NCBI GenBank assembly: GCA_965214605.1
Contig: OZ243961.1
Coordinates: 2,880,001 to 2,944,000 of the forward strand
DNA: 64,000 nt
Source: an uncultured Candidatus Binatia bacterium
Lineage (GTDB): Bacteria; Desulfobacterota; Binatia; Bin18
Direction of reading: 5' to 3'
The position numbers and the translations under genes are program-made. Below, one piece after another: positions 1,357-9,647 of the stretch. The stretch's first letter is position 1. Each line of letters opens with the position of its first letter. The notes beneath the pieces are model-generated. The model was not told the DNA's origin and did not search any database. It saw only the letters and a program-made list of their open reading frames with translations.

Positions 1357-2370
1357 ATGTCCATCTATATTTTAGCCGGAGATGTTGGTGGGACGAAGAC
1401 CGATCTTGCCCTCTACCACGCCGCGGATCAGGCTGCTGAGGAAGAGGGCAGGGCGATGACCTTGGTGCGCGAGGCCTCTTTTCCCAGTCTGCGCTATCCG
1501 GGCCTAGAGGAGGTCATTGATGTCTTCCTCGACCGCCAAGCACCTGTCAGAGCCGCAGCCTTTGGGATTGCCGGACCCGTCCTAGACGGAAAAGTCACCA
1601 CGACAAACCTGGCCTGGCAGGTCGAAGCGACCCGTCTCGCCCGACGCCTCAATGGTGCTCAGGTCCGGCTGATGAACGACCTTGAAGCCACGGCCCATGG
1701 TGCCCTCTCCCTCGCCCCGGAGGAGATACAGAGCCTCAACCCGGGCCTTGCGCGTCGCGGCCACCGTGCGATCATTGCCGCGGGTACGGGACTGGGCCAG
1801 GCCTTTCTGTTCTGGGACGGCCAGCAGTATCGGGCCGCAGCGACTGAGGGGGGTCATGTCGATTTTGCCCCTCGCAATACGCTTGAAGAACGCTTATTAG
1901 GCTATCTCCGGCGGCGCTATACGCGTGTCTCCTACGAACGGCTCGTGTCCGGTTCGGGTCTGGGCCAGATCTGTCGCTTTTTGGTCGAGGAGGAGGGCAG
2001 AGCCCTCACTGCTGGGGTGGCGAAACGGATACAGACTGCGGATCCGGCGGCGGTTATCGGCCAGGCTGGGGTAAGCGCCGAGTGTCCCACCTGCGAGGCC
2101 GCCGTTGAGATCTTTCTGAGCATCTACGGCGCTCAGGCTGGGAATTTGGCGCTTACCGTTATGAGTCTGGGTGGCGTGTATGTTGGGGGCGGAATTATCG
2201 TTAAGCTGTTACCCAAAGTCGGCCACGGCGCGTTTATGCGAGCGTTTGTGGACAAAGGACGCTTTGCCTCGCTGATGGAAGAAATCCCGGTGCGGATTTT
2301 GCTCAACCCCAAGACTTCTCAAATCGGTGCCGCCCAGGCTGCGCTCCGGCTCCTCAGCGGCTCAGCCTAA
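1357..2370 (+). CDS. glk: Glucokinase
   Basis: [29 protein letters not shown] and GGVYVGGGI motifs; AGGAG RBS before ATG 1357. Confidence 0.92.
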
Positions 2371-4351
2371 GCCGGCCCACAATCGCTGCAAAAACCTCCT
2401 CTGCGCACTCCTCGACAGAGTGCTCTGTGGTCTGAATACGCAGCGCTGGATGGTCCGGCGGTTCATACGGCGAGGAAATGCCGGTAAACTCGTCAATCTC
2501 TCCGGCCCGGGCTTTGCCGTACAACCCTTTCACATCTCGTTGCTCACACACCTCGAGCGGCGTCTCGACATACACCTCAAAGAAACGCTCCGGCCCAATT
2601 GTCTTCTGAGCCCGGCGGCGGTCGTCGCGAAAGGGAGAAATAACCGGCACTAGCACGATCAACCCGGCCTGATTAAAGAGGCGTGCGACCTCTCCAATCC
2701 GACGGATATTCTCGGTTCGCGCGTCGGGTGAAAAGCCGAGATCTGTGTTCAGGCCAAAACGGAGAGTGTCGCCGTCTAGGCAAAACGCGTGGAAGCCCGC
2801 CTCGTGCAGACGCTTTTCCAATGCGTGGGCTATTGAGGACTTGCCCGAACCGGACAATCCTGTCAACCACACGGTAAGCGGGTGTTGAGCCAGGGCAGTC
2901 TCTCGATCGGCGCTTGATACCAGGCCTGTCTCAAGCCGAATATTGCGCTCCTGCTCCAAACGGCGGTTGGGATCTTTTGAGAGGCTGGGGTCTGGAAAAG
3001 GGTCTGTTGAGCCCTCTCCCAATGATTGGTCATCAATGCTCTCTTTTGGAACCCGGTCGATGACCATGCCCGCCCCGACCGTGTTATTGGTCAGGCGGTC
3101 GATAATGATAAAGGCACCGGTCGCCCGATTTTTGCGGTAGGGATCAAAGGCGACCCGTTTTTCGAGCTTCAGCACGCAGCGTCCGATTTCATTCAGCCGT
3201 AACTCGTCGGCCGCCTCTCGGTGCAGGGTATTGATATCCATGCGATAGCGGACCGCGCTGATAAGGCCGGGCGTCTTCAGCGTGGCGTGCTTAATCAGGT
3301 AGGGTTTGCCCGGCTGCATCGCCTCTTCGGTCATCCACACCACCATGGCCTCAAAGCTGCTTGCCTCCACCGGTCGGTTGTTCGGATGGACGAGGACATC
3401 ACCCCGGCTAATATCGAGTTCATCCTCAAGAGTAAGAGTCACGGCCAGCGGTGAGCAGGCTTCGTCAAGTTCTCCGTCGAAGGTGAGAATCGACTCGACC
3501 CGGCTCTTTTTCTGCGACGGGAGCACCATGATCTCGTCGCCCGGCCGCACAATCCCCCCCGCAATCGTACCACAATAGCCGCGGAAATCCGCATTCGGGC
3601 GGTTGACGTATTGGACCGGTAGTCGAAAGTCGATCAGATTCAGGTCTGAGGCAATATGCACGTGTTCTAGCAGATACATGAGGGTGGCACCCTGATACCA
3701 CGGCATGGCCTCGCTTTTGGTGACCACATTATCTCCCCGCAAGGCGGACAGGGGGATAAAGCGGACATCGTTCTGTTCCAGCCGGGTGGCAAAGGCCGAG
3801 TAGTCGGCGACAATGGCGTCAAATACCTCCTGCTTGTAGGCGACGAGGTCCATCTTATTGACCGCGACAATGACGTGCTTAATGCCCAACAGCGAGGTGA
3901 TAAAACTGTGGCGGCGGGTTTGGGTCAGCACGCCGCGGCGTGCATCAATCAGAATAATAGCCAAGTCGCAGGTCGAAGCCCCGGTGGCCATATTGCGCGT
4001 GTACTGCTCGTGGCCGGGCGTGTCGGCGATAATGAATTTCCGTCTGGCGGTTGAAAAATAGCGGTAGGCGACATCAATGGTGATGCCTTGTTCACGTTCG
4101 GCTTTGAGTCCGTCGGTCAATAGCGCGGGGTCAAATGCCGAGTCGGTCGTGCCATAGCGCTGCGAATCTTTTTTGATCGCGTCGAGTTGATCTTCATAGA
4201 TCAGCTTTGAATCGTATAGCAGTCGGCCGATCAGGGTACTCTTGCCGTCATCCACGCTTCCACAGGTCAAGAAACGCAGCATGTCTTTGCGTTCATGTTG
4301 GGCGAGATAGGCTTCGATATCGGTGGCGATCAGATCGGATTGATGCGACAT
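2354..4351 (-). CDS. cysNC: Bifunctional sulfate adenylyltransferase subunit 1 / APS kinase
   Basis: [16 protein letters not shown] and [12 protein letters not shown] GTPase domain, plus C-terminal [14 protein letters not shown] kinase domain. Confidence 0.96.
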
Positions 4352-4373: not shown

Positions 4374-5294
4374 CTAGAAATAGCCCTCTTTTTTCTTCTC
4401 TTCCATCGAACCCGTCTGGTCGAAGTCGATGACCCGACCCTGGCGCTCTGAGTGCTTGGTCAGCAGCATCTCTTGAATAATCAGCGGTAAAGTATCTGCC
4501 TGTGACTCCACTGCGCCGGTCAAGGGATAGCAGCCCAGGGTTCGGAAGCGGACCATCTTCATCTGGGGTTTTTCTCCCGGCCGCAGCGGCATCCGCTCAT
4601 CGTCAACCATGATCCAGACCCCATCCCGGTCGACAACCGGCCGCTCCTTGGCATAGTACAGCGGGACGATCGGGATCTGCTCGAGGTAGACGTACTGCCA
4701 CACGTCAAGCTCGGTCCAGTTTGACAGCGGAAACACCCGGATGCTTTCGCCCTTGTCAATGGTGGCGTTATAGATGTTCCACAACTCGGGACGCTGATTT
4801 TTGGGGTCCCAGCGGTGATTGCGGTCCCGAAACGAATACACCCGCTCTTTGGCTCGCGACTTTTCTTCATCTCGTCGGGCACCGCCAAAGGCCGCGTCAA
4901 AACGGTAGCGATCAAGCGCCTGTTTGAGGGCCTCAGTCTTCATAATATCGGTGTGTTTTTTCGAGCCGTGGGTGAACGGATTGATCCCGGCTCGGCGCCC
5001 CTCTTCGTTGATGTATACGATGAGATCTAAGCCCAATTCTTGTCGGACATAGGAGTCGCGAAAGGCGATCATGTCGCGAAACTTCCAGGTTGTATCAACG
5101 TGGAGGAGTGGAAACGGAGGGATTCCTGGATAAAAGGCTTTGCGCGCTAAGTGGAGCATGACGGCCGAATCCTTGCCGATGGAATACAACATGACCGGAT
5201 TTTCAAATTCGGCGACAACTTCCCGAATAATATGGATACTTTCCGCCTCAAGACTCCGTAAATGGGTCAGGGCCTGCGCGTCGTCTGTTTTCAT
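4374..5294 (-). CDS. cysD: Sulfate adenylyltransferase subunit 2
   Basis: [37 protein letters not shown] and C-terminal KKEGYF. Confidence 0.97.
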
Positions 5295-5348: not shown

Positions 5349-6050
5349 TTATCGTTCATCCGTCCCTCGCCCTTGACCGCACACCGTGCAGTCGGGATCC
5401 TTGGCGACCGGCCAGTCGCTGAATCGGAACTGGGGAAACTGACACTCAAAGACCCGGCTGGATGAAGAGGGGCTGAGCCCGACCAGCCATTTGAGGGCTT
5501 CGGTGGCCTGAAATGCTCCCCAAAACAGATCGGCCAGCCGCTCAAACGCTGCTCCCTCCGGTATCCCTCTCCTGTGCTCAGCCGGCAGACACGCCCAGCA
5601 GGCCGCGTCCGGACCGCTCCGGCCCACGAACAAGCGTCGGTGCGAGGTCTGAGCCCAGCTGCAGCACAAGGGGTGGCCGACACTGCCGCAGGAGTCGACG
5701 AGCAGATCGGGCTCGGAGACCACCAGGTCATAGGCAGCGAGCAGTGGCAGTGCCGCCCCGCCTGCGTCATGCCGCACGACGCGACAGTCCGGATTCAAAC
5801 GCTCAAGCGTGGCTACGACCGGGTCATCCGGCTCATCGCTCGCAAAGGCCGAAAATATCGCCGGCCGCCCGCGGCTGCGCAGCCCAATGGTGCCGACTCC
5901 GGCAGCGGCCAGGTACAGCAGGGTCGTTGTCTGGGGGGCGCCGCCGTTGACGAGCACCCTGGCCCGCAGCAGTGTCTCTTGGCCTTTGCCGCCCAGCTGG
6001 GGGAGAATGATTTGGCGGCTATAGCGTTCGATTTGGGCCTCAGACAGCAT
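5349..6050 (-). CDS. Degenerate ThiF/MoeB-family (E1-like) protein, predicted inactive adenylation subunit
   Basis: Has N-terminal IERYSRQIILPQLGGKGQETL, YLAAAGVGTIG, QATEALK and two CxxC (CWAC, CTVC). Lacks GxGGLG, DxDxVxxSNLxRQ and the post-CxxC Cys. GTG 6092 is an alternative start. Confidence 0.8.
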   Translation of the reverse strand: MLSEAQIERYSRQIILPQLGGKGQETLLRARVLVNGGAPQTTTLLYLAAAGVGTIGLRSRGRPAIFSAFASDEPDDPVVATLERLNPDCRVVRHDAGGAALPLLAAYDLVVSEPDLLVDSCGSVGHPLCCSWAQTSHRRLFVGRSGPDAACWACLPAEHRRGIPEGAAFERLADLFWGAFQATEALKWLVGLSPSSSSRVFECQFPQFRFSDWPVAKDPDCTVCGQGRGTDER

Positions 6051-6121
6051 GAGAACAGGGTGGTCGAGCCGGGAGGGGGTCTTTAGAATCACATCGGAGT
6101 TCGTGAGACCGGCGACCTGTC

Positions 6122-6397
6122 TTATCCTCCGGCGATTGCCGGGACGATAGAAACCTCGTCACCATCTTTGAGGGCCGTGTCAAGATTGTCTGAAAAACGG
6201 ATATCGTCGCCGTTCACGAAGATATTGACAAAGCGGCGAACATTCCCCTGGTCGTCGCAAATCCGCTCTTTGATCCCCGGGTGGTTCTGTTCGATATTGT
6301 TAACCACAGCAGAGATCGTATTGCCTTCTGCCCTGACTTCTTGGGCACCGCCGGTGAAACGACGAAGGGGGGTTGGTATCCGTACCTGGACACTCAT
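6122..6397 (-). CDS. MoaD/ThiS-family ubiquitin-like sulfur carrier protein
   Basis: VRIPTPLRRFTGG...FVNIFVNGDDIRF...SIVPAIAGG with free C-terminal GG; GAGGAGG RBS before ATG 6397. Confidence 0.93.
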   Translation of the reverse strand: MSVQVRIPTPLRRFTGGAQEVRAEGNTISAVVNNIEQNHPGIKERICDDQGNVRRFVNIFVNGDDIRFSDNLDTALKDGDEVSIVPAIAGG

Positions 6398-6455
6398 ACC
6401 TGACACCTCCTCATAACTCATACAAGATTTTTCTAACTGTGACGGTTTTCTATGG

Positions 6456-7739
6456 CTAATGCAATTCCGTCGCTCGAACTTTTTCCAGCGGCCTGACCGG
6501 CCCGTCTCGGGTCGCCCGATATAGTGCGTCGAACTCAGCTAGGCGGGCATCTATGGTCTGTGGTTCGGTCAACTGTCCAGCGACGGCTTCGATCGTCTTA
6601 TAGCCGTTGCCGGTAATACAGATCACAATCGACTCGTCGCACGGAATACGTCCCTGCTCAATCAGCTTTTTGGTTACCGCCACAGTCGTGCCGCCGGCCG
6701 GCTCGGTAAAAATCCCCTCTGTGCGGGCCAACAGCTGAATCCCGGCCACGATTTCTTCGTCCGTCGCTGCTTCACCCCAGCCGCCCGACTCGCGGACCGC
6801 CTGCAGCACGTAGTAGCCGTCGGCCGGGTTGCCAATGGCGATCGACTTGGCGATCGTGCGCGGTTTGACCGGATCGATCAAGTCTGTGCCTTTGTGCAGC
6901 GCGCTCACAACCGGCGCACACCCGGCGGCCTGGGCGGTATAGATCTTGGGCAGCTGCCCACCCTCGACTAGGCCGACTGTTTGGAGTTCCTCGAACGCCT
7001 TGGCCACCTTGGGCAAAATCGTGCCGCCCGCGGTTGGTACAACAACGTGCTGGGGGAGGCGCCAGCCGAGCTGCTCCGCAATTTCAAAACCGTAGGTTTT
7101 GGCGCCTTCGGTATAATACGGCCGAATGTTGATATTCACAAACGCCCAGCCGTATGCATCGGCAATCTCACTACACAGCCGGTTCACGTCGTCGTAGTTG
7201 CCACGGATGGCAATCGCCTGCGGACCATAGATTGTTGAGCCCACCACCTTGCCCTGCTCCAGGTCGGCCGGAATAAAAATACAGCAGCGGAGCCCGGCCC
7301 GAGCCGCGTGGGCGGAGACCGAGTTGGCCAGATTGCCGGTCGAGGCACAGGACACCGTCTCAAAGCCAAACTCCAGGGCTTTTGACATCGCGACTGAGAC
7401 GACCCGGTCTTTGTATGAAAACGTTGGATGATTGACCGAGTCGTCTTTGACATACAGTTCATTGAGCCCGAGTGCAGCGGCGAGCCGGTCGGCTTTGACC
7501 AGCGGGGTAAAGCCGCTGTGGAGGCCGATTGTCGGCGGTCGGCTAAGAGGCAGGAGCTCTTGATAACGCCACAGAGAAGCCGGCCGCGCGGCAACGGTCC
7601 GGTGAGACATCGTGCGGCGGATGAGAGCATAGTCATACTCGACTTCGAGCGGCCCAAAACACATTTCACACACATGGACGGGAGTGACGGGGTAGTCCTG
7701 TCCGCACTCACGACAGCGTAAACCGGTAACAGTGTTCAT
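6456..7739 (-). CDS. thrC: Threonine synthase-like PLP enzyme (possibly a sulfur-carrier-dependent homocysteine synthase)
   Basis: N-terminal CRECG...CEMC, PLP lysine motif HPTFSYKDR, CASTGNLA, EGAKT, EGIFTEPAGG and ITGNGYKT; adjacent to moaD and moeB-like genes. Confidence 0.85.
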   Translation of the reverse strand: MNTVTGLRCRECGQDYPVTPVHVCEMCFGPLEVEYDYALIRRTMSHRTVAARPASLWRYQELLPLSRPPTIGLHSGFTPLVKADRLAAALGLNELYVKDDSVNHPTFSYKDRVVSVAMSKALEFGFETVSCASTGNLANSVSAHAARAGLRCCIFIPADLEQGKVVGSTIYGPQAIAIRGNYDDVNRLCSEIADAYGWAFVNINIRPYYTEGAKTYGFEIAEQLGWRLPQHVVVPTAGGTILPKVAKAFEELQTVGLVEGGQLPKIYTAQAAGCAPVVSALHKGTDLIDPVKPRTIAKSIAIGNPADGYYVLQAVRESGGWGEAATDEEIVAGIQLLARTEGIFTEPAGGTTVAVTKKLIEQGRIPCDESIVICITGNGYKTIEAVAGQLTEPQTIDARLAEFDALYRATRDGPVRPLEKVRATELH

Positions 7740-7782
7740 ACGTATCCTTCAGGGAGAAACGCTCCGGTCGGTGTATCTCTCC

Positions 7783-8541
7783 TCAATGAGTCTGACACAG
7801 CCCGGCTTCTTCGTAACGTTCGGGCTGGAGGCTGGTGATGGTGGGCAGGGGGCCGCACAGCGGACAGCGTGGGTTGGGGTTGAGGCGGACCTCGCGCCAA
7901 CGCGGAAGCTGGGCATCATAGGTCAGCAGACGATTGGTTAACAGCTCTGGGCTGCCGTTCAAATATTTGACCGCCTCAGTGGCTTGGATGAGACCGAGGC
8001 TGCCGGCGACGCTGCCCAGAACGCCAGCCTCCTGACAGCTCGGAATCTCATCCGGAGAGGGCGCAACCGGAAATAAACACCGCAGGCAGGTGCTTTTTCC
8101 CGGCAGGACGGTGAGGGTTTGGCCCTGAAACTGGACAATTCCGGCGTATGAAAACGGTTTGCCGAGCAAGACTGCGGCGTCATTGATCAGAAATTTTGTG
8201 GTGGTTCCGTCGGTCGCGTCGATCACAAAGTCATAGTCTTGGAAGACGGCGCTCATATTGTTCAGCGTGAGCTGCTCTGGGTAGGTCCTGAGTCGACCGG
8301 TCGGCCGCAGACGGGAGAGCTTCTCGCGGGCAGATTCTACTTTGGGGTGGTGCAGATCGGGTGTGAAATGCAGGATCTGACGTTGTAAATTGGACACATC
8401 GACCACGTCTGGATCAATCAGGCCGATCCTGCCGACCCCAGCCAGAGCCAAGGCGAGGGCCGCCGGACAGCCCAGGCCCCCGACACCGACAACAAGCACC
8501 GACCCACCATCTTTTAGAACGGTATCCATTCCGGCATCCAT
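7783..8541 (-). CDS. moeB: ThiF/MoeB-family adenylyltransferase (E1-like) lacking the N-terminal RYSRQ segment
   Basis: VLVVGVGGLG, DPDVVDVSNLQRQILH, DFVIDATD, CLRCLF, PSCQEAGVLG and CPLCG. Start overlaps the bamD 3' end. Confidence 0.9.
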   Translation of the reverse strand: MDAGMDTVLKDGGSVLVVGVGGLGCPAALALALAGVGRIGLIDPDVVDVSNLQRQILHFTPDLHHPKVESAREKLSRLRPTGRLRTYPEQLTLNNMSAVFQDYDFVIDATDGTTTKFLINDAAVLLGKPFSYAGIVQFQGQTLTVLPGKSTCLRCLFPVAPSPDEIPSCQEAGVLGSVAGSLGLIQATEAVKYLNGSPELLTNRLLTYDAQLPRWREVRLNPNPRCPLCGPLPTITSLQPERYEEAGLCQTH

Positions 8542-9647
8542 TCCCGCATTTTTAACATCGGATCTTGTTCTTCTTCGAAGTCTTCTTCCTCCTCTTCGAT
8601 CGGTCCACTCGCCCAGGGTAAGAAGCGGCGTATGCCCCGCACCGATTGTTCTTCCTCAAGCCCGGCCAAGCGGCGTTCTTCGGCCTCTTTTCTATATTTT
8701 TCGCGGGCTTCTTCAATCAGTCTGAGTTCTTCGCGGCGGTCTTCCAACGCTTGCGCCCGAATGTTGGCCTCCTCCTTTCGCAACGCGGTGACCAGCAGCA
8801 AAAGCGGATCAAGACTAGGCTCGGGTAGCCCGGCCAAGTCCCCGTTGGCCACGTCGGTGGACGGGCCAGCTTCTTGTCCGTCTTCGAGCGAAGCGACTTC
8901 TTCGGCCAGAGCGCCAATTTGTTCCAACTGTTTGATTTGTTCGGCAGAGGGGAGGGTGGTGGCCCGAAAGTCATGGGCTTTGGCCGCCAGAGTGGCTAAC
9001 TCTGGTGCCTGGTCCAGGGTCAGGACTTCTTCGAGTCTGGCTAGGGCCTCCGTGCTGGCCTCGGTTTCGGGATACTGCTCGACAAGCGACCGCAGACGGA
9101 CTCTGGCCGCAAACAAATGACCGATCCTCTGATACTGATTGCTAATGCCGAGGATACTCGACGCCAGCACTTCGCGGCACTCCCGACTCTTTTCCTCGGC
9201 CAGGGCGCTGAAGCTGCTGTCGGAGTAGCGCTCAAGGACAATCCGGAAATGTTTGTAAGCGTTTTGGGTAACGGCCTGGTCTCGGTCCGGCGAGCGCATC
9301 TGTTCGAGATATGACATGCCCCGATAGTACTCGACAAACGGCAAGTGGGGGCTCGTTGGATAGCCGCGCTCAAAGTCGTTAAACGCGGCTATCCCGTCGC
9401 TATACTCGCCATCGAGATAATACGAGTAGGCGATTTTGAGTTGGGATTCCTCCGCATAGGGATTGAGGGGGTAGTGGTCGAGCAAATCACGGAAGTTCTC
9501 GGTTGCAATATTATAGTCCCCATCCACGTAGGCTTTTTCCGCTATATCGAAATACTCCTGAGCCGACGGGCGTTTGACCACCGACGTGCAGCCGGCAAGG
9601 CAGACAAGAACAAGCACCCATACCGACAACCCGCTGTCTCTCCACAT
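8514..9647 (-). CDS. bamD: Outer membrane protein assembly factor BamD with extended acidic C-terminus
   Basis: Lipobox LAGC, TPR helices, YPLNPYAEESQLKIAYSYY and DRDQAVTQNA motifs. Confidence 0.85.
   Translation of the reverse strand: MWRDSGLSVWVLVLVCLAGCTSVVKRPSAQEYFDIAEKAYVDGDYNIATENFRDLLDHYPLNPYAEESQLKIAYSYYLDGEYSDGIAAFNDFERGYPTSPHLPFVEYYRGMSYLEQMRSPDRDQAVTQNAYKHFRIVLERYSDSSFSALAEEKSRECREVLASSILGISNQYQRIGHLFAARVRLRSLVEQYPETEASTEALARLEEVLTLDQAPELATLAAKAHDFRATTLPSAEQIKQLEQIGALAEEVASLEDGQEAGPSTDVANGDLAGLPEPSLDPLLLLVTALRKEEANIRAQALEDRREELRLIEEAREKYRKEAEERRLAGLEEEQSVRGIRRFLPWASGPIEEEEEDFEEEQDPMLKMREWMPEWIPF

Follow-up and report, generated by a model that had tools for sequence, protein, structure and literature searches.

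Two complementary ThiF-family paralogs in a sulfur-carrier operon of a Candidatus Binatia bacterium: a predicted heterodimer with a single active site

The stretch of DNA analysed here (the window) comprises 64,000 nucleotides of contig OZ243961.1 from an uncultured Candidatus Binatia bacterium (GenBank assembly GCA_965214605.1, positions 2,880,001 to 2,944,000 of the forward strand) and contains an operon of seven genes, in which a sulfur-carrier protein of the MoaD/ThiS family is encoded between two paralogs of the ThiF/MoeB family of adenylyltransferases, ThiF-A and ThiF-B. The two paralogs deviate from the canonical enzyme in complementary ways: ThiF-B keeps a complete catalytic core and lacks the N-terminal segment that bears the arginine finger, whereas ThiF-A keeps this segment and has lost the active site. 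The seven genes run head to tail on the minus strand and are listed in Table 1 in window numbering; their assignments are backed by both Pfam and NCBIfam profiles. The 3' end of bamD overlaps the start of ThiF-B by 28 nucleotides, and the other intergenic gaps measure 22–71 nucleotides. From the sequence of the window it had been predicted (the original prediction) that ThiF-A and ThiF-B form an obligate heterodimer with one active site, of a kind not known to have been described in bacteria, and the motifs on which this was built are all found where the prediction placed them, as judged from the open reading frames (ORFs), the Pfam matches and the alignments to MoeB and ThiF.

Table 1. Positions of the operon genes in the window, with the principal profile matches
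Gene or product	Position	Strand	Profile match
cysN–cysC fusion (sulfate adenylyltransferase subunit 1 and adenosine 5'-phosphosulfate (APS) kinase)	2354-4351	minus	Pfam GTP_EFTU 156.1 bits, APS_kinase 211.9 bits
cysD (sulfate adenylyltransferase subunit 2), directly 3' of ThiF-A	4374-5294	minus	Pfam PAPS_reduct 192.3 bits
ThiF-A, degenerate ThiF-fold paralog, 233 residues	5349-6050	minus	PF00899 40.7 bits (cut-off 28.1)
MoaD/ThiS-family sulfur-carrier protein, 99 residues, C-terminal Gly-Gly (...PAIAGG)	6122-6421	minus	Pfam ThiS PF02597 67.3 bits
ThrC-like pyridoxal 5'-phosphate (PLP) enzyme, 427 residues, Cys-rich ribbon at the N-terminus	6456-7739	minus	Pfam PALP 230 bits
ThiF-B, ThiF/MoeB-type adenylyltransferase with complete catalytic core, 252 residues	7783-8541	minus	PF00899 228.9 bits
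bamD (outer-membrane assembly lipoprotein), conserved upstream neighbour	8514-9647	minus	Pfam YfiO 123.7 bits, TIGR03302 172.6 bits

The match of ThiF-B to PF00899 spans profile positions 22–237 of 238, and its alignment to Escherichia coli MoeB (HMMER, PDB entry 1jw9) begins at MoeB residue 28. The protein starts about 14 residues ahead of the glycine loop and the RYxRQ segment is missing, and the motifs GVGGLG, LIDPD, SNLQRQ, both CxxC pairs and CQEAGV are kept. In this alignment R54, K67, D111 and C169 of ThiF-B correspond to R73, K86, D130 and C187 of MoeB, and C152, C155, C226 and C229 correspond to the four zinc-binding cysteines (Cys4). The similarity to the E. coli enzymes is high (E-values of 8e-43 for ThiF and 4e-39 for MoeB), and every catalytic residue that was checked is present; among eukaryotic PDB chains the best matches are SAE2 and UBA3 (E-values of about 1e-17 to 1e-16). 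Judged by the features of PF00899 enzymes, ThiF-B has the glycine loop, the Asp after strand 2, the Arg of SNLxRQ, the Lys, the Asp, the Cys and the zinc-type Cys4, and is without the N-terminal finger. Its short N-terminus is not a matter of start-codon choice, because the ORF is closed upstream by an in-frame stop codon, which makes a longer N-terminus impossible in this frame, and the DNA upstream of it is the end of bamD. At the C-terminus, the stretch that follows the second CxxC is conserved throughout the B family (PTITSLxPExYE..LC; window 7783–7830), and a Cys is frequent near its very end; in an enzyme that is without a rhodanese domain, this tail could serve to relay sulfur or to bind a partner. 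By Pfam, neither ThiF-A nor ThiF-B contains a domain beyond ThiF, rhodanese included.

The longest ORF of ThiF-A reaches a GTG at 6092; the homologs start at the ATG at 6050, MLSEAQIERYSRQ. The protein keeps the N-terminal IERYSRQIILPQLGGKGQE segment, the zinc-type Cys4 (CWAC and CTVC) and the QATEALK helix, and it can be aligned from residue 2 to its end with E. coli ThiF (PDB entries 1zud and 1zfn) and MoeB (1jw9) with E-values of 2e-12 to 4e-11. In these alignments IERYSRQ of ThiF-A sits on LRYNRQ of MoeB, so that R12 is the counterpart of R14 in MoeB and R11 in ThiF. The latter two residues are described as arginine fingers that reach from the neighbouring subunit into the ATP site, and R73 of MoeB and R70 of ThiF as the other ATP-coordinating arginine, which binds phosphate within the same chain (PMC13139853). 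Beyond the N-terminal segment ThiF-A is degenerate: the glycine loop reads NGGAPQ as against GLGGLG, an 8-residue gap stands in place of D..SNLQRQ, equivalents of MoeB K86, D130 and C187 are absent, and the best PF00899 stretch is confined to profile positions 1–49. In other words, the family profile and the N-terminal finger are found in ThiF-A and the catalytic residues are not, and the protein is almost certainly catalytically dead and unable to adenylate anything.

The A family also carries an invariant cysteine in the motif LNPDC (residues 85–89, C89) and a nearly invariant C121, neither of which is found in the aligned E. coli enzymes. The LNPDC cysteine occurs as well in the intact or early A-position copies of three genomes (G076, G608 and G576, discussed below) and is missing from the short A partners of other families. 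In NCBIfam, ThiF-A gives a weak match, under the cut-off, to the E1-like domain TIGR03882 that binds the leader peptides of thiazole/oxazole-modified microcins (E-value of 9.7e-06).

The complementary loss extends to the whole of both families. Among the best 120 homologs of each protein (38–100% identity for A, 63–100% for B), RYSRQ is present in 120/120 A homologs and SNLxRQ in none, whereas R[YFW]xR[QHN] before the glycine loop occurs in 0/120 B homologs, which have the glycine loop in 119/120 cases (the exception is a fragment) and SNLxRQ in all 120. An intact RYSRQ N-terminus in close homologs of ThiF-B, which would have spoken for a truncated assembly, was thus not encountered. In an alignment of 31 A sequences the invariant positions form a block at the N-terminus (Q6, I7, R9, Y10, S11, R12, Q13, I14, I15, L16, P17, G20, G21, G23 and Q24), and the mean identity of the remainder of the protein is far below that of this block. 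In the B family, R54, K67, D111 and C169 are invariant, and the zinc Cys4 is invariant or nearly so. For a joint alignment, A proteins shorter than 200 residues and B proteins shorter than 230 residues were dropped, which left 119 of the 120 in each family, the window's proteins included. R9, Y10 and R12 are present in 119/119 A members, in which the third Gly of the loop is Gln in 94/119, the Asn is Ala in 96/119, the Arg position is occupied by Pro, Glu, Gly or Ser, the columns of K86 and D130 are gapped in 119/119 and the Cys position is variable; in the B members every catalytic position is conserved in 119/119 and the finger segment is missing. The zinc Cys4 is common to both families.

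The degenerate gene is maintained by purifying selection, in line with the original prediction. Ratios of nonsynonymous to synonymous substitutions (dN/dS) were calculated by the Nei–Gojobori method for 25 A genes, using only pairs with 0.1 < dS < 2 (85 of 300 pairs for A and 5 of 45 for B), and the A genes gave a median of 0.17 with a range of 0.11–0.46; the corresponding pooled proportions (pN/pS) were 0.055 in codons 1–30 and 0.37 beyond them. The A frame is intact in 25/25 of the loci used. Every one of the 28 matched locus pairs shows lower conservation for A than for B, with median identities of 48% and 67.5%, respectively. Together, these values indicate that A evolves fast yet under clear selection and that the finger segment is its most constrained part.

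The two defective forms also occur together. A metagenome scan steered to the A-specific N-terminus returned 80 loci, and all 12 of those that carry an A-type gene with sufficient upstream DNA also carry a B-type gene, in the order bamD, B-type gene, ThrC-like gene, carrier, CysM-like PLP enzyme, A-type gene and ATP sulfurylase/APS kinase. In the nine B-type frames from metagenomes with a complete 5' end, the finger motif is missing from the whole stop-to-stop frame (9/9), and the frames begin 12–22 residues before the glycine loop; in the complete ThiFs from the same scan the motif always lies 27 residues before the loop.

A broader view was obtained from a survey of the class that was anchored on the carrier gene, a close counterpart of which is present in 111 of the 121 genomes of the class (the unpublished G587 counted). 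The survey covers 66 genomes from 19 families, for which 60 of the 105 further carrier-positive genomes were chosen so as to cover all families, with long contigs favoured and G587 left out, and the ThiF-like frames were all read at nine key columns after alignment to a hidden Markov model (HMM) of canonical ThiF. In 54 of the 66 genomes a finger-less upstream copy with 6–7 of the 7 catalytic residues is combined with a downstream copy that has the finger arginine and 0–5 of the 7 catalytic residues. Two complete copies are present in two genomes (G076 and G608), one complete copy and no second copy in nine (families f86, f93 and f95), and a B gene in two broken frames beside a degenerate partner in one (G537, a 78%-complete assembly). 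A finger-less copy alone was found in 0 of 66, so that a whole finger-less copy was accompanied by the other defective form in 54/54 cases. The degenerate partners keep the finger arginine in 55/55 cases and the first Arg of RYxRQ in 48/55. A control with a regular expression, independent of the HMM, found the motif in frame in 0/54 B-types (in another frame in 1/54) and in 11/11 complete copies. The recurrence of the pattern in 120/120 homologs of each protein and in 54/66 genomes means that it is due neither to chance nor to assembly truncation, and the complementary loss noted for the single pair in the window is thereby real, family-wide and phylogenetically coupled. The split state is characteristic of the whole class, and relatives with two intact copies or with intermediate states exist, which goes beyond the original prediction.

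In many families the A-position partner has only about 155–230 residues and is unalignable past the first Rossmann elements, and it nevertheless begins with ...IERYSRQ, IERWSRQ or IERYARQ. As the class survey shows, most A-position partners are too divergent to be found with ThiF-A as the single query, and the phylum-wide search with this protein, which gave 3 of 201 genomes, is an undercount. E-values of the A profile do not separate A-type from canonical ThiFs, as canonical genes reached 8e-49. In the phylum of G201, 1 of 151 genomes was positive at an E-value of at most 1e-55, and this match coincides with the G110 locus; for the phylum to which G202 belongs the figure was 0 of 151, which is uninformative, since an empty answer of this search shows nothing. 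A scan of genome contigs with the A alignment, the patterns of which also fit canonical enzymes, returned 80 loci at 29–36% identity that are ordinary complete MoeB/ThiF genes and served only as outgroups and controls.

Three genomes of family f3 represent stages of the split. Both ThiF paralogs are intact in G076 and G608, and in G576 the B copy is finger-less while the A copy keeps the glycine loop, R73 and K86 and has LTALRRQ for SNLxRQ and DTAPG for DxxD (loss of the equivalent of Asp130), with the Asn and the Cys lost; G576 represents this split at an early point. When A-type, B-type and complete ThiFs are placed in one tree, A (support 100) and B (99) form separate clades, and the intact copies of G076 adjoin the A and B stems (82 and 80). 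A second tree was built from the catalytic cores of the upstream copies, with the finger segment excluded and G537, whose B gene is broken, omitted. In this tree the single-copy clade is sister to a clade that takes in every two-copy operon (89), the three genomes of f3 form one group (91) and the finger state changes at least twice. Since neither the N-terminal segment nor the active site is likely to return once it has been lost, a duplication followed by complementary degeneration on at least two occasions is the simplest history, which implies at least two independent splits.

Some further loci have unusual ThiF arrangements. Four metagenome frames (L136 614–1753, L137 638–1753, L147 1112–1762 and L126 552–1217) have RYSRQ or RYGRQ about 177 residues into the frame and no SNLxRQ, and have the look of A-like proteins to which a long N-terminal stretch has been added or fused; that of L147 lies downstream of a MoaD-like gene. 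In two loci of metagenome-assembled genomes outside the surveyed set (L010 4544–9077 and L027 4955–9409), a CysM-like gene, a complete ThiF, a ThrC-like gene, a carrier, a NIL-domain gene and a second complete ThiF follow one another, which suggests that carrier operons retain a pair of ThiF paralogs even where neither has degenerated. In L199 (G537), L120, L149 and L138 the ThiF-like genes are split over two frames, probably through frameshifts or faulty assembly of the metagenome-derived DNA, and these loci were omitted from the counts or classed as 'other'.

In most related operons the B-position gene is preceded by a BamD-like frame; bamD adjoins this gene, often overlapping it, in most two-ThiF operons of the class, and within 7 kb of the nine single-copy operons no bamD was seen. 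The order of cysD after the A-position gene is repeated in G110, G534, G610, G552, G586 and G618. A small NIL-domain gene (PF09383) stands just before the A-position gene in many relatives (L188 6254–6622, L190 8413–8961 and L010 8002–8274), and one database protein of 307 residues (P0081) is a NIL–A fusion; in the operon of the window a NIL gene is missing. Methionine and sulfur metabolism are the processes to which NIL domains are linked.

The neighbours of the two paralogs point to amino-acid biosynthesis. The core of carrier, ThiF-family enzyme and ThrC/CysM-type PLP enzyme is present in 66/66 surveyed operons, of which 41 have both a ThrC-like and a CysM-like enzyme, 22 only a CysM-like enzyme and three, the window included, only a ThrC-like enzyme, which makes 63/66 with a CysM-like enzyme. 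In most relatives two amino-acid pathways are probably supplied by a single carrier. In the window the carrier also matches SAMP1 (66.8 bits) and MoaD_arch in NCBIfam, and the ThrC-like gene is scored there as threonine synthase PRK08197, above the cut-off (323.8 bits, with 288.3 bits for TIGR00260). Experimental evidence for MetO, MetM, MoeZ and Mec of Streptomyces is listed in Table 2 of PMC13759103, citing Hasebe et al. (2024), in which MoeZ is the [MetO]-sulfur ligase, and mycobacterial MoeZR and CysO are described in PMC3227635. From its neighbours and from the MetM/MetO entry in PMC13759103, the ThrC-like enzyme is a candidate carrier-thiocarboxylate-dependent homocysteine synthase of the MetM type. 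We infer that the operon encodes a pathway of the MetO/MetM and CysO/CysM type for homocysteine and/or cysteine, not for molybdopterin, in which the MoaD-like carrier is the presumed substrate of the A/B enzyme. The same genome contains another complete MoeB-like gene in an open frame of 403 residues (G000:C1:439850-440554, L001), a length that fits a MoeB–rhodanese fusion, and two further ThrC-family genes over the TIGR00260 cut-off (C1:1227096-1228064 and C1:1665420-1666400), so that the housekeeping molybdopterin and threonine functions are probably encoded elsewhere. No JAMM/Mec gene is present among the seven operon genes, which were the part of the genome searched for it.

On this basis it is proposed that ThiF-A and ThiF-B are the two subunits of one asymmetric MoeB-like dimer that activates the MoaD-like carrier encoded between them. 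ThiF-B would hold the sole working site for ATP and carrier adenylation, to which ThiF-A, the dead paralog, would give the arginine of its N-terminal helix in trans, and the dimer with its one completed active site would adenylate the Gly-Gly end of the carrier. The adenylated carrier would then be thiocarboxylated and its sulfur passed to the ThrC-like enzyme to form homocysteine, and in most relatives the carrier would also feed the CysM-like enzyme to form cysteine; sulfate activation is encoded by the neighbouring cysD and cysNC, or by Sat–CysC in relatives. The pair itself probably originated when a complete ThiF was duplicated inside the sulfur-carrier operon and the copies then degenerated in complementary ways. 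As only ThiF-B has a nucleotide site and only ThiF-A has the donor segment, an A–B dimer with a single completed site is the best supported arrangement, to which we assign a probability of roughly 0.68; the heterodimerization, the donation of the arginine in trans, the chemistry of the pathway and the sulfur donor are all deduced from sequence. A wider formulation is held with somewhat less assurance, at little better than even odds: that the whole class has turned the homodimeric MoeB/ThiF-type enzyme of a cysteine/homocysteine carrier pathway into an obligate two-gene heterodimer with one site, through a duplication whose copies then degenerated in complementary ways, on at least two independent occasions and with every stage still living, the inactive subunit of the deep split being reduced to about 160 residues around the finger helix.

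Several observations weigh against these proposals. The finger is reported to be non-essential in E. coli MoeB and ThiF, and E. coli TcdA is a working homodimer without it (PMC13139853). The term 'obligate' in the original prediction therefore rests on conservation and not on chemistry: the complementary conservation of the two genes supports it and the reported dispensability of the finger weakens it. Since TcdA works as a finger-less homodimer, ThiF-B might do so as well. Where the A-position partner is short, as in many families, the ThiF domain is unalignable over its C-terminal half, and the MoeB-like interface may be gone. The co-occurrence stems from one class in which the operon is vertically inherited and linked to bamD, and it represents few independent events, although at least two. 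The trees come from quick searches with support values from the Shimodaira–Hasegawa-like approximate likelihood-ratio test only, and the 35 'canonical' sequences of the joint alignment were picked by the same motifs, which would make any use of them beyond reference circular. Finally, a fused A–B protein was absent from the best 120 longer proteins (409–2000 residues), a blank that is weak evidence; the top matches there were MoeB–rhodanese and MoaD–MoeB–rhodanese fusions with at most 36% identity.

The most serious competitor takes up the precedent of TcdA and holds that ThiF-B acts alone as a finger-less homodimer, with ThiF-A as a non-catalytic accessory protein, either a scaffold or adaptor for the carrier, the PLP enzymes or the sulfur donor or else a regulator, whose N-terminus is conserved for that role. 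Besides the dispensability of the finger in MoeB and ThiF and its absence from TcdA (PMC13139853), inactive E1-like domains that only bind partners exist, as the sub-cut-off match of ThiF-A to TIGR03882 recalls, and the NIL-domain gene preceding the A gene in many relatives, the NIL–A fusion P0081 and the invariant LNPDC cysteine of the A family could all be read in the same sense. We nevertheless regard this as unlikely, since conservation in A is highest in precisely the stretch that complete ThiFs conserve and B lacks, and the finger has been lost from B only alongside an A partner (B alone in 0/66, single-copy operons complete in 9/9), a coupling that an unrelated adaptor role does not predict. 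It appears less probable still that the two proteins act in sequence, with ThiF-B adenylating the carrier and ThiF-A binding the carrier or acyl-adenylate and delivering sulfur through its own cysteines in place of a rhodanese of the MoeZ type. MoeZ is a fusion of ThiF and rhodanese. Sequential action would account for the lack of a rhodanese domain in A and B next to a longer 403-residue frame for the other MoeB-like gene of the genome, and it has a model in MoeZ as the [MetO]-sulfur ligase of Streptomyces (PMC13759103) and possible relay residues in the invariant C89 and nearly invariant C121 of the A family. These cysteines, however, are not kept in the short A partners (for example in G143 and G038), in which the finger segment is always kept, and the loss of the N-terminus of B would be left unexplained.

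An artefact, namely a truncated or mis-started B gene beside a decaying A pseudogene, was considered and rejected. Nothing speaks for it beyond how the two genes look at first sight, one short at its N-terminus and the other degenerate, whereas the B frame is stopped upstream, where bamD occupies the DNA, the motif is absent from all 120 homologs and from all 54 genomes of the class with a B-type copy, and the A ORF is intact at all 25 loci with dN/dS well below 1.

A key event in the evolution of ubiquitin-activating (E1) enzymes and of the ubiquitin system is the step by which a symmetric homodimer of the MoeB kind became asymmetric, with one half active and the other inactive. Work on this step has up to now dealt mainly with eukaryotes and, for the fused form, with the Bil defence operons of bacteria. 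If the A–B heterodimer proposed here is real, it would offer a minimal system with subunits of about 230–250 residues and a simple substrate, in which natural stages (one intact copy, two intact copies, early split and deep split) would allow subfunctionalization into an obligate heterodimer to be tested. It would then also be asked whether a finger that is dispensable in E. coli MoeB and ThiF turns indispensable here, and the operon would provide a prokaryotic and tractable replay of the origin of the SUMO and NEDD8 E1 heterodimers. At present the degenerate subunit is annotated as 'adenylyltransferase/sulfurtransferase', 'molybdopterin-synthase adenylyltransferase' or 'hypothetical', and the operons flag a widespread sulfur-assimilation route similar to MetO/MetM and CysO/CysM in a lineage rich in uncultured members.

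In comparison with known systems, MoeB and ThiF of E. coli share the fold family of A and B, the zinc-type Cys4 found in both and a substrate of the MoaD/ThiS type that ends in Gly-Gly. They are symmetric homodimers with a finger and an active site on every chain, whereas here these two elements are found on separate gene products, and they serve molybdopterin and thiamine synthesis, neither of which is the pathway of the window. The E1 enzymes of SUMO (Aos1/Uba2, SAE1/SAE2) and NEDD8 (APPBP1/UBA3, NAE1/UBA3) consist of two paralogous MoeB-like modules of which one is inactive (PMC11354881), an arrangement to which A and B would correspond. The eukaryotic enzymes have in addition a catalytic-Cys domain and a ubiquitin-fold domain and work with a conjugating enzyme (E2); A and B have neither of these domains, and there is no E2-like gene among the seven of the operon. 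The eukaryotic enzymes make a conjugate, whereas the product in the window is presumably a thiocarboxylate. In the eukaryotic heterodimeric E1s it is the inactive subunit that supplies the arginine. The subunits in the window are minimal (233 and 252 residues), and their origin, within a bacterial sulfur-carrier operon, is independent of the eukaryotic E1s.

Another parallel is the Tcd1–Tcd2 tRNA dehydratase of yeast, which forms cyclic N6-threonylcarbamoyladenosine (ct6A) from N6-threonylcarbamoyladenosine (t6A) and is a two-gene heterodimer of the ThiF family, in which, according to the model in PMC13139853 (2026), R59 of the inactive Tcd1 is the finger that reaches into the site of Tcd2 and none is returned. 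Unlike A and B, this enzyme is eukaryotic, anchored in the mitochondrial membrane, of the TcdA branch and directed at tRNA; moreover, the R59A variant of Tcd1 lost only 26% of the ct6A/t6A ratio, and Tcd1 has lost one ATP-coordinating Arg, whereas A has lost the whole nucleotide site (PMC13139853). Among bacteria, BilD, the E1 of the antiviral Bil operons, combines inactive and active adenylation domains as a pseudodimer (PMC11354881; PMC10557695). In BilD the modules are fused in one polypeptide with a Cys domain, an E2 is involved and the function is conjugation and defence, whereas A and B are two minimal genes of biosynthetic sulfur metabolism. The novelty claimed in the original prediction is narrowed accordingly: a fused asymmetric E1 is known from bacteria in BilD, and a two-gene bacterial MoeB/ThiF heterodimer is not described in the full-text literature searched, a scope outside which lie subscription journals, supplements and surveys of the E1 superfamily. 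With respect to the pathway, the CysO/CysM/MoeZ system of Mycobacterium and the MetO/MetM/MoeZ/Mec system of Streptomyces combine a MoaD-like carrier, a PLP enzyme and a ThiF-family enzyme, as does the operon in the window. In the CysO and MetO systems a single MoeZ activates the carrier, whereas in the window this activation would be split over two rhodanese-less ThiF paralogs, one that may provide the active site and one that may provide the finger.

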